From a virus (taxonomy: Duplodnaviria > Heunggongvirae > Uroviricota > Caudoviricetes): a stretch of DNA of 14,368 nt. The stretch is taken from the IMG/VR virus record IMGVR_UViG_3300023174_009216; one strand, written 5' to 3'. Below the pieces are notes generated by a model. It saw only the letters and a list, made by a program, of their open reading frames with translations. It did no database searches and had not been told where the DNA came from. The stretch's first letter is position 1. Every line of letters starts with the position of its first letter. Made by a program: the position numbers and the translations under genes. Below are positions 1 to 11,309 of the stretch, piece after piece.

Positions 1-300
1 TCATTTTTTCTGTATTATTCTTCTTTCTATTAATTCTATACTATCCCCTATCTCAAAATTTCTATACTGGGTCACATTAAAATCTGTCCCTTCCACGTGA
101 ACCTTCCAGTAAGGTGTTGTTTGTAAAGTGTTATCACTCCCTATAGGATGATACTCCACATTGTCTATTCTATACATAACTTTCTTATCTATGATAGTGT
201 ATTTTTTACTATAGTAGCTACAGAAAAATAAAGATCCGCCCATTGTAAGAATAAATAAAATCAAAGGAAATTTTAAAGATGGGATTTTAGTCTCTTTCAT
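1..300 (-). CDS. Hypothetical protein, 99 aa, N-terminal transmembrane anchor/signal segment
   Basis: ATG at 300, TGA at 1-3; hydrophobic stretch FPLILFILTMGGSLFFCSYY followed by a beta-rich soluble part; no recognised family. Confidence 0.7.
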   Translation of the reverse strand: MKETKIPSLKFPLILFILTMGGSLFFCSYYSKKYTIIDKKVMYRIDNVEYHPIGSDNTLQTTPYWKVHVEGTDFNVTQYRNFEIGDSIELIERRIIQKK

Positions 301-766: not shown

Positions 767-1333
767 TTAAATGATCTCATCTATAATACCATGCTTTAAA
801 GCTTGTTTAGCTGTGAAGAACCAATCCTTTTTTTGCTCATAACACTTATCAAGCTCTGCCTCAGTTAATTTGGTATTTGCTAGTGTATGTGATTCTATAA
901 TCTTTTGTAGTCTCTTAGCTTCAATAACCTCTTCCTCCATATCTTTTAATTTTCCAATAGCTCCAGAGCTAACCTGATGGTACATAAAAGTTGCTTGATC
1001 GTATGCAAATCTTTTGTGTCCAGCTATTGAGATAAGAAATCCGCAGCTCATTGCACATCCGGTAACTATTGTATGAACGGGGGCATTAGACTTGCTAATT
1101 ACACCTAGAAGACCGAGACACTGATAGACATAACCTCCGTAGGAATCTACAAAAATTTCTATAGGACGGGGAGTATACGAAAACCCACTTATCTCTGAAA
1201 GTTTCTTAATATATGAATCATCCTCATTAATCTCCAAAATAGATTTGGTTAATGCGTTCATACTAGTTTGATCTACTTGCTGTGCCAGATATAAAATTCT
1301 TTCTTTTGGAACAGGGATCGGTAAATTAGGCAT
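767..1333 (-). CDS. clpP: ATP-dependent Clp protease proteolytic subunit (ClpP-like, peptidase S14)
   Basis: KERILYL, IFVDSYGG (NSPGG equivalent), AMSCG (Ser107), FMYHQ (His130), KDWFFTAKQALKHGIIDEI (Asp181), numbering on the 199-aa track ORF. Start is either ATG 1333 (MPNLP..., AT-rich leader) or GTG 1366. Confidence 0.93.
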   Translation of the reverse strand: MPNLPIPVPKERILYLAQQVDQTSMNALTKSILEINEDDSYIKKLSEISGFSYTPRPIEIFVDSYGGYVYQCLGLLGVISKSNAPVHTIVTGCAMSCGFLISIAGHKRFAYDQATFMYHQVSSGAIGKLKDMEEEVIEAKRLQKIIESHTLANTKLTEAELDKCYEQKKDWFFTAKQALKHGIIDEII

Positions 1334-1375: not shown

Positions 1376-2998
1376 TCAGAGTGTAAACGTTATAACCCTG
1401 TCATAAGCAGTAGCAGTGTACGTTCCTGGAGTTAATGTGGATACACTTATAGCTCTTAATGCTCCACCAGCAAAAGCCTTTGCTGTTATTAAAACTCCTA
1501 ATGAATTTCTGATATAAAGAGTACCTGAAGCATTACTGTTTATATAAATACTTTTATTTGATGTATTATAATAGAAAGATGATATACGAATTGAATCATA
1601 AAGTGCTACATTTATAGGTTTAGTACATCCGTTAAAATCCTTTATCAGTATAGTATAATTGCCAGGAGATAAATTTTTGAATGTGTCTATTGGCTGAAAT
1701 GGCCCATTATTTAAACTACATGTGTATGGTGGTGTTCCTCCTGAAACATTAGGATATATGTAATTCCCCACTGATACCAGATTTGGAGCGGAGCAATCAC
1801 CAAGTGTTACTGCTTGTGATTTTGAACTACCTAATTGTCCGCATGGGGTTTCTCCTCTTACTGTTACTGCTCCTCCTGTATATCCCACGCCAAAGAGCAC
1901 TGTAATAAATGAGCTATCATAATATGCACTAACTATAGATGTGTTTCTAGGAATTGTCCAATGATACATCGAAGTCCTATGTTGTGACGAAGTAGGCTCA
2001 GGTGAAGCTGCAACGAATGTTATATAGTAACCCACACATGGATTATAATATCCAGGACCAGACACAATTGCAATTGGCGTCGGTGGTAATCTTTGTGTGG
2101 TTAAAGCTAAAGTACGGGGTAAACTCACAGAACAGGCATTTACGCTTCTTACAGAAAGAGTATCTTTTACAAAATCTGCGCTAAAATAAAGTCTGATCGC
2201 CGTGTCGTTTGAACCTAAGATTTTTCTTATTGTTCCTGTGGTTGTTGTTATGGACCAAATATAAGATGTTGCATAAGGAACATTTCTTATCATAAATGTG
2301 TCGTATATGACATCACAAACATCGGATGTTGCTACAACGCTAGGAGAGAATGACTTCTGAATTACACCCGGCGTGGAAGCAATCCTTTTGTATATTGTAA
2401 GGGATCTAGCTGACCCTATTGAATTATTATAGCATGCATTGATTGCAGAAACTTTTATAGGCAATGTTCCTGTAAATGAGGAGCTATATTTAACTCTAAT
2501 AAATGTATCAGAATTATTTCCTATTATAGAAGCTCCGCTTGGAACTGTCCATAGATATGATGTTGTATTAGTTGATCTTGTCGTTTTATAAATAAGTGTA
2601 TCGGAAGGAATATAAAGACAAGCATCTGTTGCTCCTGAAATTGTTCCTGGTATTCCTGGTAATGTGGTACTTGATACGACACTCACCACAGAGCTTCCGT
2701 TCATCAATGAGGATTCATTCAATGTGTTTGTTGCCTTAATTGTATAAGTGCCTGCTACAGTCTGATTAGGAAATACTATCTGGCTACCCGTTCCCACTAT
2801 AGGTGTTCCCATAATGATTGTGCCACTTCTAAGCAATTGATATGAAACTCCCGATTGAGATCCTGATAATCCTATTTGAATTCCAGATCCTGTTGCTGAG
2901 CAGTAATATCCACCTCCTGTTATATTATATAGGGTTGGAGGGATTGAAAATGATTTAATAGAAATGGACAATAAGATGAACAATAGAATTTTATACAT
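1376..2998 (-). CDS. Secreted Bacteroidota-type adhesin-like protein: signal peptide, Ig-like domain, 3 PKD-like domains, SprB-like repeat, putative T9SS type-A sorting domain
   Basis: Signal MYKILLFILLSISIKSFS; Ig-like GLSGSQSGVSYQL...GTGSQIVF...AGTYTIKA; three repeats P-x-x-I..C..Y-x-W..N/T-A/P-C; SprB-like VSGGTPPYTCSLNNGPFQ..FKNLSPGNYTILIKDFNGC; C-terminal IRNSLGVLI..ISVSTLTPGTYTA. Confidence 0.8.
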   Translation of the reverse strand: MYKILLFILLSISIKSFSIPPTLYNITGGGYYCSATGSGIQIGLSGSQSGVSYQLLRSGTIIMGTPIVGTGSQIVFPNQTVAGTYTIKATNTLNESSLMNGSSVVSVVSSTTLPGIPGTISGATDACLYIPSDTLIYKTTRSTNTTSYLWTVPSGASIIGNNSDTFIRVKYSSSFTGTLPIKVSAINACYNNSIGSARSLTIYKRIASTPGVIQKSFSPSVVATSDVCDVIYDTFMIRNVPYATSYIWSITTTTGTIRKILGSNDTAIRLYFSADFVKDTLSVRSVNACSVSLPRTLALTTQRLPPTPIAIVSGPGYYNPCVGYYITFVAASPEPTSSQHRTSMYHWTIPRNTSIVSAYYDSSFITVLFGVGYTGGAVTVRGETPCGQLGSSKSQAVTLGDCSAPNLVSVGNYIYPNVSGGTPPYTCSLNNGPFQPIDTFKNLSPGNYTILIKDFNGCTKPINVALYDSIRISSFYYNTSNKSIYINSNASGTLYIRNSLGVLITAKAFAGGALRAISVSTLTPGTYTATAYDRVITFTL

Positions 2999-6560: not shown

Positions 6561-6592
6561 GAGGTAAATTTATTTAATTTGCCTCACTTTTT
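6561..6592 (+). terminator. Probable intrinsic terminator of the endolysin gene
   Basis: Stem GAGGTAAATT/AATTTGCCTC (10 bp with one G-U), loop TATTT, followed by ACTTTTT. Confidence 0.55.
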
Positions 6593-7389
6593 CTTATGAG
6601 TATTCTATTTTTTACTCTTCTGTTATTTTTTATTCCATTTCCAATTGCTGAGCTAGTAACTCCCAAACAAGAAGCAGCATCTGATATACATTCCCATTCA
6701 TTTATAACATTACCTTCAATATCTAATTCAATAATAGGTTTAAGCTGATTCTTTGATATTCCTCTTCTAACACTTTTTATTCTTTGCCCCTTATATTCAT
6801 AAAACCAAACGTATCCGCCTCCTGTTTGGTTCTCTCCTCTTAAACATTTTCCTATTATCTTCTCTGAACTAAATTTTAATTTTTCTGTTGCATATCTTAT
6901 TGATTTATACTCATCTATAAAATCACCGCTTTCTGCATTATATTGATATATTTTCTTCTTATTAAACCCATCGTGTGTTCTTCCTTTCCATGGGTTAAAG
7001 TTTAGCATTCTTTGACGTGCTATTTCAGCACATTTATTGTATGTTCCATTCTCCGTTCTTTTTTTAACCCCCGAAAAAATGGATTCTTGTGACATTTCAA
7101 ATGTTTTTTCTCCGCCTGTAGTCATATTAGCCAATGGACCTGTACCTAAATCCATCCTTCCATACTTTGAAATAAGTTCTATTTCTTTATTACAGACATC
7201 CCCCCTAGAATCAGATTCAAACACTATTTTAAAATCGAATCCATACTTATTGTTAATATTTTTCCAGTGTGGATTTCTTTTGATTTTACTCTTTGCTCTA
7301 GAATATTGTTGCTTACCAATATTATTTCCTATGCCTACATAAAATACTTCTTCAGTTCCTTTCTTATAATGCTCATATACGTAATACAT
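6574..7389 (-). CDS. Free-standing homing endonuclease: GIY-YIG-like catalytic domain + two NUMOD1 helix-turn-helix repeats
   Basis: YYVYEH..FYVGIG..R..E..LISKYG..LANMTTGGE (GIY-YIG-like); KIYQYNAESGDFIDEYKSIRYA..GYVWFY and PIIELDIEGNVINEWECISDAA (NUMOD1); antisense to both neighbours. Confidence 0.85.
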   Translation of the reverse strand: MYYVYEHYKKGTEEVFYVGIGNNIGKQQYSRAKSKIKRNPHWKNINNKYGFDFKIVFESDSRGDVCNKEIELISKYGRMDLGTGPLANMTTGGEKTFEMSQESIFSGVKKRTENGTYNKCAEIARQRMLNFNPWKGRTHDGFNKKKIYQYNAESGDFIDEYKSIRYATEKLKFSSEKIIGKCLRGENQTGGGYVWFYEYKGQRIKSVRRGISKNQLKPIIELDIEGNVINEWECISDAASCLGVTSSAIGNGIKNNRRVKNRILIRKSEAN

Positions 7390-7980: not shown

Positions 7981-10275
7981 ATGAAAAGAGTCCAAAAAAC
8001 TAAAAAAATACTGGAAAATCAGGAGGAAGGACAAGAAATGCCACAAGGTGGAAGTGGCTATGTATATCAGGCAATGGGATTAGACCTAACCCAAATGGCA
8101 AGAGACGGAAAAATTGATCCAGTTGTTGGAAGAGATAATGAACTTGAACAAGTTATCTGGGTATTGAGTAGAAAGATGAAAAATAATCCAGTACTAATAG
8201 GTGAGCCTGGCGTTGGTAAAACAGCAGCTGTAGAAAAGCTAGCCCTTGTTATGATTGGCGATAATTGTCCAGGTTTTTTGGATGGTAAAAAACTTATATC
8301 GGTTGACCTTAATGCAGTATTAGCAGCAGGAGCTTTGGGACAGCTTATACAAGAAGTTGAGGAGCAGGGATTGGTCCTATTCATGGATGAAATACACACT
8401 CTAAAAAAACCAGCTGCCTATGATGCTCTTAAGCCTGCTTTGGCTAGAGGAAAACTAAGCCTGATAGGTGCAACAACTCTAAATGAATTTAGAGAGAGCA
8501 TAGAGAAGGACGGAGCAATGGAAAGAAGATTTCAAAAAATCTATGTGGATGAGCCTAGCTTTGCAGAGTGCTTGGAAATATTACAAGGTATCAAAAGTAA
8601 ATATGAGCAATTTCATAATGTAAGCTATACAGATGATTCAATAGTGTCTTTTATAAAACTCTCTCAGAGATACATTACAGATAGATTCTTACCTGATAAA
8701 GCTATAGATTTAATGGACGAGACTGGTGCTAAGATCCGTATGGCTAGAACTAAGAATCCTAGGGTAATGGAATTAGAAACTGAATTACTAGCTGCCAATA
8801 AAGCTGTTCATGATTTAGCAAAGGCACAAAAATTCGCAGAATCTTACGAGGCTCATGATAGAGTTAAGGAAATACAAGGCGAATTAAAGGCATTAAAAAC
8901 TGATGGTCCAAGAGAGGAACCTATAACAATAACAAAAGAACTATCTGAAGAGGTAGTTGCTAAAAAAACTAGAATACCTGTAGAGAGTATATCCAGAGAT
9001 CAAAAGCAATCTTTAAAAGGATTAGGATCAAGATTAAAAATGGCTGTTATAGGTCAGGATGAAGCGGTAGAAGCAGTTACTCGTATAATAAAAAGAACTA
9101 AGGCAGGTTTAAAAGATCCAAATAGACCAGAAGGTGTGTTTCTTTTCTTAGGACCAACTGGTGTTGGTAAAACACATTTGGTTAAAGAATTAGCTAGAGA
9201 GGTGTTTGGAGATCCTAGTAAAATGTTTAGATTAGATATGAGTGAATTCAGTGAGCCTCATACAGTTTCAAGACTATTTGGTTCGCCTCCAGGATATGTT
9301 GGATATGGTGAGGGAACACAGTTCACAGAGAAGATCAGAAGAAATCCACATTGCATTGTTCTTTTGGATGAACTTGAAAAAGCTCACCCTAAAGTTCTAC
9401 AATCTTGGCTTCAGGTTTTTGAAGATGGACATATGACAGACGGTGAAGGAAGAAAGGTTGATTTCAAAAACACCATTATTATTATGACTTCCAATATTGG
9501 TGCAAGAGCTGAAGAGGAAAAAAGAGCAACAATAGGATTCTCAACAGATGCCTCAAAAGAGGTTCAGAGAATAGATGCAGTAAAAGCAGATCTTAAGAAA
9601 AAATTACCACCCGAATTTATTAACAGAATAGATGAGATTATTATCTTTAAGGCATTAGAGAAAGACAATCTTTTCAAAATTATCGATGGTGAACTAAATA
9701 AGGTTGCAAACAAATTAAAAGAGAGAGAAATTGAATTGACTTGGGGTAGATCCATCAAGGAACTTATCCTAAATCAAGGATATGATAAAGAAATGGGAGC
9801 TAGACCTTTAAGACGTGCAATACAACAGTATATAGAAGATCCTATTGCAAATGCAATTATAGAGGATGAGGTTGGTGATAAAATTCACTTGGAATATGAT
9901 CTATCAAGCAACAAACTAGTAATTAACGGAAATCCCGTTAGTGAAAGCAAAAAACAAAAACTACAAAGGATTTTCAATCTATTTGAATCCGATGATAATA
10001 AAGATAAACCAAAAACTGGAAATCTTATGACCTTTGAAGCATTTGCAGCAGACCCTGCTACTAGACCAATGCCTAGTCCAAATGAGGACCCTGATGTGGA
10101 TCCTGATGTGGAACCATTACCTCCGGTAAAACCAGAAAGACCAGGAGAACCTATAAAAAGACCATCTGTGAATCCAGATCCTCTAGCAAAGAAAAAATCT
10201 TCAGAAGATGACGTGGTTGATAGACTTCTTAAAATACTTAGAGATGAAGACGATTCAATTGAAAATTACATTTAA
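7981..10275 (+). CDS. clpC: Class-1 Clp/Hsp100 AAA+ ATPase, ClpC/ClpE-type (no N-domain, D1 pore loops deleted, IGF loop present, C-terminal extension)
   Basis: Walker A GEPGVGKT and GPTGVGKT; Walker B FMDE and LLDE; ERRF; GYVG D2 pore loop; GARPLRR; short UVR-type M-domain ([14 protein letters not shown]); IGF at 9532-9540. Automated tools may label it ClpA/ClpB. Confidence 0.9.
10087..10113 (+). repeat. 12-bp tandem duplication in the ClpC tail (DPDV-DPDV-E)
   Basis: GACCCTGATGTG GATCCTGATGTG GAA. Confidence 0.8.
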
Positions 10276-10280
10276 CATTT

Positions 10281-11309
10281 ATGAGCGACAAAATAAAAAA
10301 ATTCGATTCTTTTTTTGAGGCAATAAGAGCAAGTGACATGTCTTCCATCCCAAGTGGATATCTTTCAAGTGTCACAGATAGAGCTAAAGAAAGAATGGGA
10401 ATAGCTGGACAGAGAGAAGGAGATCAGAGAGCAATAATGGCAGCAGCTGGTCCTTTAATGTCGGAGCTTGCCAGATCACAGGGATTATCAAGAGGACATG
10501 AAGAACCATTGGAGAAATTAGCTACCAAGGTAATTTATGATTTATATAAGCCCCTTATAGATTTCTATAACATCAAGCTTGATATAAAATTTGCTAGTGG
10601 CTCTGATATGAGAAGAATGATAGATCAGGGATACCAAAAAAATAAAAGAGACGAACCTGTAAATCCAAGTCAAACTCCTATTGTGAAAGCTAGAGGAGCA
10701 GATTTTTCCATGCTGATACACGAAGCAGTTAAAGGGATCTGGCTAGTGCTATCCCTGAAGGGAATTCCTAAGGATAAAGCTATGGCTAAAGATCTAGCTT
10801 CTAAGTTTGGACTAAGAGATGAACCAGATGATTGGAAATATGGGCCAGAGATTGCAGCTGATCTTAGAGATTTTGTGAACGAGAATCCAAAGGTAGATTC
10901 ATATGCTAATGTTAGAGAGGAGCTTTGGATGTTTATGGTTGATTCTAGAAAAGTTCCTGATGAAGAGTTTTTAGAACTTATGAAAGGTATATTGGCTAAG
11001 ACCCCAGAGGCTAGAAAAAAATTAGATGGCTATATAGATATTGTGATTAGGGGAATAAAAGAGAGGGACGAGTATCTAAGAAAGATGGAGGAGTATAAAA
11101 TACAGATGGCGGAATACGAGAAAAGAAAAGCAGAGTATCTAGAGCGTAAAAAAACAAAGGGACCAGCGATTACTCCTAGGGAGGTTAAACCTGAAAAGAC
11201 CATTGAATATTCTCAAATGACACAAAGAGAATTAAATGACGAACTTAATAAAGCTTTAGATAGAAGAGATTCCGAAAAGATTGCGGAGATTTCAAAGTAT
11301 TTACAATAA
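10281..11309 (+). CDS. Uncharacterised 342-aa protein: CTS-like N-terminus, LIHEAVKG motif, coiled coil, C-terminal UVR-like hairpin
   Basis: Starts 5 nt after the clpC stop; MSDKIKKFDSFFEA; ERDEYLRKMEEYK..ERKK coil; ELNDELNKALDRRDSEKIAEISKYLQ. Confidence 0.85.
   Translation: MSDKIKKFDSFFEAIRASDMSSIPSGYLSSVTDRAKERMGIAGQREGDQRAIMAAAGPLMSELARSQGLSRGHEEPLEKLATKVIYDLYKPLIDFYNIKLDIKFASGSDMRRMIDQGYQKNKRDEPVNPSQTPIVKARGADFSMLIHEAVKGIWLVLSLKGIPKDKAMAKDLASKFGLRDEPDDWKYGPEIAADLRDFVNENPKVDSYANVREELWMFMVDSRKVPDEEFLELMKGILAKTPEARKKLDGYIDIVIRGIKERDEYLRKMEEYKIQMAEYEKRKAEYLERKKTKGPAITPREVKPEKTIEYSQMTQRELNDELNKALDRRDSEKIAEISKYLQ

Follow-up and report, generated by a model that had tools for sequence, protein, structure and literature searches.

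Does a large phage encode a surface protein that leaves the infected cell through the secretion machinery of its host? The question is raised by P0001, a gene in a stretch of 14,368 nucleotides (the window) from the IMG/VR virus record IMGVR_UViG_3300023174_009216, a member of the Caudoviricetes. A preliminary description had read its product as a candidate adhesin carried by the machinery for type IX secretion (T9SS), with a Sec signal peptide at one end and, at the other, a tail resembling the type-A C-terminal domains (CTDs) that sort proteins to this system. Type IX secretion builds the surface of Bacteroidota, including adhesins, the gliding machinery and polymer-degrading enzymes, and this surface is what the phages of these bacteria must recognise and leave. 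Phage genes with T9SS tags are known from in silico work alone, and we know of no experiment that has shown their role.

Phage-encoded T9SS cargo has been reported in silico for the crAss-BACON open reading frames (ORFs) (de Jonge et al. 2019, PMC6949934), and the 'Cryophage' has three variable genes with T9SS sorting domains among its flexible genes (Bellas et al. 2020, PMC7468147). Such cargo is already published; what is new here is a phage-associated variant of the tag, which carries the residues FYYN in the position of the usual YPNP and occurs with swappable passengers. Our literature search found no paper on a phage-specific CTD variant. We give a slightly better than even chance to the reading that P0001 is exported via Sec, that its tail is presented to the T9SS translocon, and that its stalk reaches the surface of the cell or the surrounding medium.

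The tail of P0001 resembles type-A sorting domains

The ORF list and its translation confirmed P0001 as an intact minus-strand ORF of 540 amino acids (1376-2998), and its location and content are exactly as first described. The last 71 residues (aa 470-540; 1379..1591, minus strand) contain the quoted type-A pattern, IRNSLGVL ... ISVSTLTPGTY, with the GxY motif kept (G525-T-Y527). This segment occupies the extreme C-terminus of P0001 and of every copy of the locus, and AlphaFold2 (AF2) modelled it as a seven-stranded beta-sandwich with a pLDDT of 91.6. In the model of the whole protein, which was built from a four-sequence alignment and reached a pLDDT of 43, only the tail was confident and the other domains were not interpreted.

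When the tail model was compared with the ESM Atlas, eight of the ten nearest cluster types carried the T9SS sorting domain PF18962 and came from Bacteroidota, the nearest being PF18962 tails with TM scores of 0.69-0.78 and root-mean-square deviations (rmsd) of 1.5-2.3 A. A fold search of the PDB returned the translocon-bound CTDs of FspA (8glj_D, Z 7.4) and RemA (8gl6_D, Z 7.1). At the level of profiles, an alignment of 20 members of the tail family described below (A4) matched 20 canonical YPNP tails (A3) in register by hhalign, with a probability of 83.8% and an E-value of 7.9e-6; with just four close orthologs the match was in register but weak (probability 5.7%). The likeness of the P0001 tail to a CTD goes beyond chance, because the family profile aligns in register and the fold agrees. 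From these profile and model comparisons we conclude that the tail is a genuine but divergent relative of the type-A CTDs, forming a sub-family of its own rather than a threshold-passing member.

The absence of PNP has to be read in the light of the structural work on the translocon. Lauber et al. (2024, PMC10994853) state that the conserved type-A motifs specify the CTD fold and do not contact the translocon, and they report contact with PorV for one conserved CTD residue alone, the near-terminal lysine. Since these motifs act on the fold, loss of PNP alone need not abolish recognition.

FYYN-type tails form a family with varied passengers

An exhaustive hmmsearch of 1.84 billion representatives, with four orthologous tails as the query, returned 28 protein clusters. 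For about 20 of these clusters the domain match ran up to the last one to three residues; among the 24 informative members, about 20 have the domain at the very C-terminus, behind varied passengers. The family consensus has FYYN in strand 1, Cys-Asn in strand 2, T-N-x-x-G, L-P-x-G-T-Y and the ending TYGRSxxFxR; the cysteine of the second strand is kept by most members and is absent from canonical CTDs. All six full-length members examined begin with a signal peptide (P0073, P0074, P0078, P0081, P0088 and P0090), and their family's passengers range from right-handed beta-helix or lyase-like domains, through RCC1-like domains with PKD repeats, to very short ones. PF18962 scored 15-23 bits on four members and 21.4 bits on a copy of the tail in IMG/VR (L016); on P0096 its 31.9 bits exceeded the cut-off of 27. 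A search of PDB sequences with the family profile gave a full-length alignment with the canonical YPNP tail of a lipase (7pzj_A); the top match of this search, a partial one to the WD40 protein SMU1, was judged spurious.

Two further modules accompany the tails. In P0080, P0086, P0096 and P0099 (L030:10001-12556) the order of the sandwich and an SprB-like module is reversed relative to P0001, and the two appear to travel together in either order. A cysteine-rich repeat of about 45 aa, CxFTYGxWxxC...QxRxY...PxxCxGxPPxDSxxRxC, which has no Pfam match, is present in one to three copies just before the tail in P0073, P0074, P0077, P0083, P0092 and others. It also occurs in P0070 (aa ~204-290), a paralog of P0001 with a canonical CTD, which it links with most of the FYYN-tagged proteins, and it is absent from P0001.

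Every readable context of a gene of this family is phage-like. One member (L016) lies inside a 154-kb IMG/VR viral contig (CheckV completeness 55%) with an RNA ligase 64% identical to that of the present phage, and another (L025) is accompanied by an RNA ligase 65% identical to it. At L023 a 59%-identical clpP lies 2.4 kb from the FYYN-tagged gene, and by its gene content this is the equivalent locus with a different passenger. The remaining contexts are a Tad6-family gene amid small ORFs (L014) and a 114-kb contig in which small ORFs are accompanied by a DnaB gene (L030). The same tag on different passengers, some of them at the equivalent clpP locus, would behave as a portable export module. 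No true copy of the FYYN tail was found in 185,579 species genomes, which were scanned with two peptide patterns only, and for this reason its absence from bacteria, and with it the finding of the sub-family only in phage-like DNA so far, is provisional. Two matches in metagenome-assembled genomes of Desulfobacterota/Deltaproteobacteria were partial (37 aa), were not recovered by the hidden Markov model (HMM) of the family, and were treated as spurious.

Signal peptide and passenger domains of P0001

The N-terminus of P0001 (aa 1-18; 2945..2998, minus strand) has the n-h-c layout of a Sec-type signal peptide, with K3, a hydrophobic core at aa 4-14 and, ahead of I19, S-F-S, after which cleavage is predicted. 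The highest 10-residue Kyte-Doolittle mean is 2.99, in the same range as in P0070 and in two nearby barrel-like proteins, and residues 2-15 are helical in the whole-protein AF2 model. An ortholog of 87% identity has the same amino acid at all 18 positions although the synonymous divergence (dS) is 0.32. The signal peptide proposed earlier is supported by this conservation and by the n-h-c pattern, as judged by a hydrophobicity and charge heuristic rather than a dedicated predictor.

The domains that follow match the architecture of Bacteroidota surface proteins, as had been proposed. An Ig-like domain of the Ig_7/PF19081 type occupies about aa 19-112 (2663..2944, minus strand); its presence was borne out by an identity of 57-62% between aa 21-107 and four tandem repeats in P0010, a PF19081-bearing protein of bacterial origin from a 483-kb contig. 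Pfam likewise confirmed three PKD-like repeats, here PKD_6 (PF19408), at about aa 113-204, 205-302 and 303-399 (1802..2662, minus strand; boundaries approximate), with 82.3 bits against a gathering cut-off of 25 (E 3.3e-23) over three stretches, the best being aa 116-193. Each repeat has one cysteine pair (C127/C189, C228/C289 and C321/C386). The claim of an SprB-like repeat at aa 400-469 (1592..1801, minus strand) held in part: many BLAST and HMMER matches to P0001 were SprB-repeat proteins, with 44-58% identity over about 45-50 aa, but PF13573 (SprB) reached 21.4 bits, below its cut-off of 28, and was seen only on scanning the sub-fragment aa 395-470. The Y_Y_Y model was also sub-threshold in this region (20.6 bits). 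The passenger has no catalytic domain and, judging from these modules, looks like a binding or adhesin stalk.

Conservation and mosaic structure of the gene

Orthologs of the same length as P0001 were found at 87% and 70% identity. Relative to the former (L001:10001-11623) the ratio of non-synonymous to synonymous divergence (dN/dS) was 0.14, and the gene is under purifying selection. The Ig and PKD parts are 93-95% identical and the tail just 54%. The N-terminal domains have a dS of 0.3-0.4, whereas at 1379-1801 of the window it reaches 1.1 for the tail and saturation for the SprB-like module. The jump in dS, together with the divergence of the tail, points to a separate history of the 3' end, and the pattern suggests a mosaic that may have arisen by recombinational replacement of the tag region rather than by mere relaxed constraint.

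A scan of the window for promoters and terminators gave no signal higher than in shuffled sequences. The element TATAAAAATA upstream of the ATG occurred twice in the window against 0.7 expected, which was not significant.

A paralog with a canonical sorting domain

About 6.5 kb beyond window position 1 the same phage encodes P0070, a protein of 663 aa (L004:18147-20138) with a signal peptide, two of the Cys-rich CxFTYGxW repeats, three PKD_6 repeats and a canonical CTD. Its PKD_6 array is paralogous to that of P0001 (28% identity over 309 aa, E 3e-22), and the two proteins share the signal peptide, the three PKD_6 repeats and a C-terminal sandwich. P0070 differs from P0001 in having YPNP, the near-terminal lysine, a PF18962 score of 42.5 bits and the CxFTYGxW repeats. 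The canonical CTD of P0070 indicates that this phage carries T9SS-tagged genes.

P0070 is preceded, with a gap of 11 nt, by a gene for a signal-peptide protein of 163 aa, and the two form an apparent operon (L004:17644-20138). A second barrel-like gene (170 aa, weak OMP_b-brl match) lies further upstream at L004:16262-16774. Both small proteins resemble small outer-membrane barrels of Bacteroidota, and the pair of barrel and P0070 could constitute a phage-encoded carrier or anchor for cargo. The CTD of P0070 and the small barrels make the use of the host envelope machinery by this phage credible and, as do the named domain homologs, point to a Bacteroidota host.

Phage-like character of the contig and neighbouring genes

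The flanking DNA was checked by reading about 70 kb of the 117.7-kb contig NODE_321, and the surroundings of P0001 are phage-like and not those of a bacterial chromosome. They include an endolysin gene near P0001 (phrog_181, E 6e-65), a T4-type RNA ligase gene (phrog_968, E 6e-84), genes for NAMPT, NADAR and a PRTase, and 22 tRNA genes in one array on one strand (L009:12793-18452, about 11-17 kb past the end of the window; ARAGORN). A two-ring Clp ATPase gene lies in the window itself, most of the remaining genes of the contig are ORFans, and no housekeeping genes were noted within the part that was read. The same gene order was assembled independently from several samples and by several assemblers, in contigs of 117.7, 50.7, 80.8, 37.2 and 24.5 kb. 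The contig is very probably of phage origin.

Downstream of P0001, at a distance of 42 nt, lies a clpP-like protease gene (767..1333, minus strand; phrog_94, E 2e-28; PF00574), which is possibly co-transcribed with it. Further along, downstream of clpP and of an oppositely oriented gene of 140 aa, a 99-aa ORF (1-300, minus strand) has a hydrophobic N-terminal segment ending in ...LFFC, and its predicted product is possibly a small membrane protein or lipoprotein. On the other side, a free-standing homing endonuclease gene of the NUMOD/HNH type (6574-7389, minus strand) stands between the endolysin gene and a gene of 41 aa; it is absent at the same position of the 87%-related phage (L001), where both flanking genes adjoin. 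The two phages also differ at 7981-11309 of the window, which holds the two-ring Clp ATPase and a 342-aa partner where L001:4213-6226 has a PAS histidine kinase and a response regulator; as read from the gene order, a whole module is swapped here between otherwise syntenic flanks. In the block between P0001 and P0070 there is an M28-family peptidase without a signal peptide (L004:13335-14342, minus strand; PF04389, 31 bits). At least 11 unrelated ORFan proteins of this phage (L005:11203-20385; L004:16892-17443 and 20673-21302) start with a shared leader, MKxIKxFxxF..., and several of the proteins with this leader have ...MGLI or ...LGLI as their last residues; the leader is absent from P0001.

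Weighing the explanations

On the reading that we favour, P0001 would belong to a large and as yet uncultured phage from fresh water that infects a Bacteroidota host, and its product would be exported from the infected cell. Its signal peptide would take it through Sec into the periplasm, the 71-aa sandwich, as a phage-associated variant of the type-A sorting domain, would be presented to the host T9SS translocon (SprA/PorV), and the passenger of Ig, PKD and SprB-like modules would come to rest either at the surface of the cell or in the medium; the tag would then serve as a portable export module for variable phage surface-remodelling proteins. In this scheme we infer the Sec cleavage, the T9SS dependence, the final location and the biological role of P0001, and superinfection exclusion, receptor masking or adhesion can be named as its role only by way of speculation, as can the cell aggregation and the jamming of the T9SS that had been proposed earlier. 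A number of observations weigh against this reading. TIGR04183, whose cut-off is 23 bits, gave 17.8-18.1 bits (E 0.002); its match was in register but appeared on the isolated tail alone, and PF18962 had no match in Pfam scans of the whole protein and of sub-fragments. By the refutation test of the preliminary description, taken strictly, the tail fails both curated T9SS models, and of the earlier assignment to the type-A CTDs it is the remote homology in profile and fold that stands, while the cut-offs are missed and PNP is lost, with YYN in its place. The near-C-terminal lysine of canonical CTDs aligns with a threonine in the FYYN family, and although 19 of 20 members have a terminal K or R, P0001 ends in leucine and its orthologs in lysine. 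In the PDB fold search the best match was DUF3244 (Z 9.5), ahead of the CTDs, and the fold is a generic Ig/FN3-like sandwich for which PDB scores do not separate CTDs from FN3-like folds. The domain is internal in P0080, P0086 and P0096, where an SprB-like module of about 80 aa follows it, and the tail is the fastest-diverging segment of P0001 relative to the 87% ortholog. The T9SS of the host, finally, is presumed. Several of these points would be explained if P0001 were exported by Sec but its tail had been repurposed from a CTD into a module for binding or anchoring, into a tag specific to some shuttle or into a PorV/SprA decoy, and were no longer a T9SS signal; the site of action of P0001 might then be the periplasm or the outer membrane, or it might block type IX secretion of the host. 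The sub-threshold scores with the loss of PNP, the replaced lysine together with the missing basic residue at the end of P0001, the internal position in three members and the extra cysteine of the second strand all favour such a change of function. P0070 adds to this, because a fully canonical CTD is kept in the same genome and the divergence of the P0001 tail may reflect a different job. Against it, the placement of the domain at the C-terminus of most informative members, behind varied passengers, is the signature of a sorting tag and not of a binding module, and what the translocon is reported to recognise is the fold, not the motifs (PMC10994853). We regard repurposing as the main rival reading, and as rather unlikely.

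P0001 could also be a decoration or fibre of the virion, similar to Hoc of T4, in which case the hydrophobic N-terminus would not be a signal peptide. The PHROG family phrog_26672, annotated 'virion structural protein', matches aa 415-480 (E 2e-5), phage particles commonly bear Ig-like domains (Fraser et al. 2006, cited after PMC6949934), and the beta-helix passengers of family members resemble tailspike depolymerases. The PHROG match, however, is limited to the SprB-like repeat, and the n-h-c signal peptide is conserved at every residue under synonymous change and recurs on full-length family members. In addition, the putative packaged proteins of this phage bear the MKxIKxF... leader that P0001 lacks, and P0001 sits amid clpP, the endolysin and small ORFs rather than recognisable structural genes, which makes a place on the virion quite improbable. 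A still smaller chance falls to the view that the contig is a bacterial chromosome, a plasmid or a chimera and P0001 an ordinary host surface protein. This view can draw on searches that also count against the export of a phage protein: no capsid, portal or terminase gene was found with PHROGs and precomputed Pfam in the roughly 70 kb read, and neither Portal_T4 nor Terminase_6C turned up in the 154-kb IMG/VR fragment of the relative, in which a search for Gp23 was uninformative since the controls gave no signal either. PHROGs on 40 further neighbouring ORFs revealed no structural gene, save that one Laminin_G_3 protein weakly matched 'virion structural protein', INPHARED had no match to the window (megablast) or to P0001 (tblastn), and a scan of IMG/VR with P0001 found no relative. 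The recurrence of the gene order in independent assemblies nevertheless argues against a chimera or chromosome, as do the tRNA array, the RNA ligase, the endolysin, the homing endonuclease and NAMPT/NADAR, the predominance of ORFans without noted housekeeping genes, and the relative whose similar RNA ligase sits in an IMG/VR viral contig. A bolder reading is tentative and itself rather unlikely: the FYYN sandwich may be a phage-evolved tag for secretion or anchoring that derives from the type-A CTD. A clade of large freshwater Bacteroidota phages would have kept it as a portable module and recombined it, at conserved loci, onto adhesin-like PKD arrays, beta-helix lyase-like enzymes and RCC1-like propellers. 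Its engagement of the host T9SS may be non-standard, whether it uses another shuttle, for which one of the small outer-membrane barrels of the phage is a possible candidate, or competes for PorV. If this were true, the phage would both use and rewire the export of host surface proteins.

Comparison with known systems

The closest kind of known element is the type-A CTD, as represented by RemA, FspA and RemZ of Flavobacterium johnsoniae (PDB 8GL6, 8GLJ and 8GL8) and by RgpB and PorZ of Porphyromonas gingivalis. The FYYN tail shares with these a seven-stranded sandwich of ~70 aa at the extreme C-terminus of a signal-peptide protein with a passenger of the Bacteroidota-surface type, and its strands are in register with theirs, including the G-x-Y of strand 6 and the N/D-x-x-G of strand 3 (Z 7.1-7.4, rmsd 2.4 A). 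It differs from them in falling below the HMM cut-offs, in lacking YPNP, in the replacement of the near-terminal lysine by a terminal R or K in most members, in the extra cysteine and in its occurrence so far only in phage-like contexts, and its secretion is predicted. The DUF3244 proteins of Bacteroides (BT_1867, 4G5A; BVU_0276, 3D33), with 79 residues aligned at 18% identity, are similar in fold; unlike the tail they are stand-alone small proteins of unknown function, and no link to them exists at the level of sequence.

Among phage proteins, the sorting domains of the Cryophage and the crAss-BACON ORFs likewise sit on variable passengers and have a proposed use of the host system. Those domains, however, are canonical and recognised by the models, whereas the FYYN tag escapes the curated models and stands apart as a sub-family, and P0001 has as its passenger an adhesin-like array of Ig, PKD and SprB-like modules, not a glycoside hydrolase or a BACON array. 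P0001 resembles the Hoc-type decorations of T4 in having tandem Ig/PKD-like modules from a large phage, but unlike them it has both a Sec signal peptide and a CTD-like tail.

The finding lends support to Bacteroidota as the source of the host for a phage group that is otherwise unassigned. The FYYN sub-family would give a handle for a systematic search for such genes, and it would serve as a natural test of whether the translocon needs the fold or the motifs of its substrates. It would also offer a way into the study of envelope remodelling by large phages during infection.

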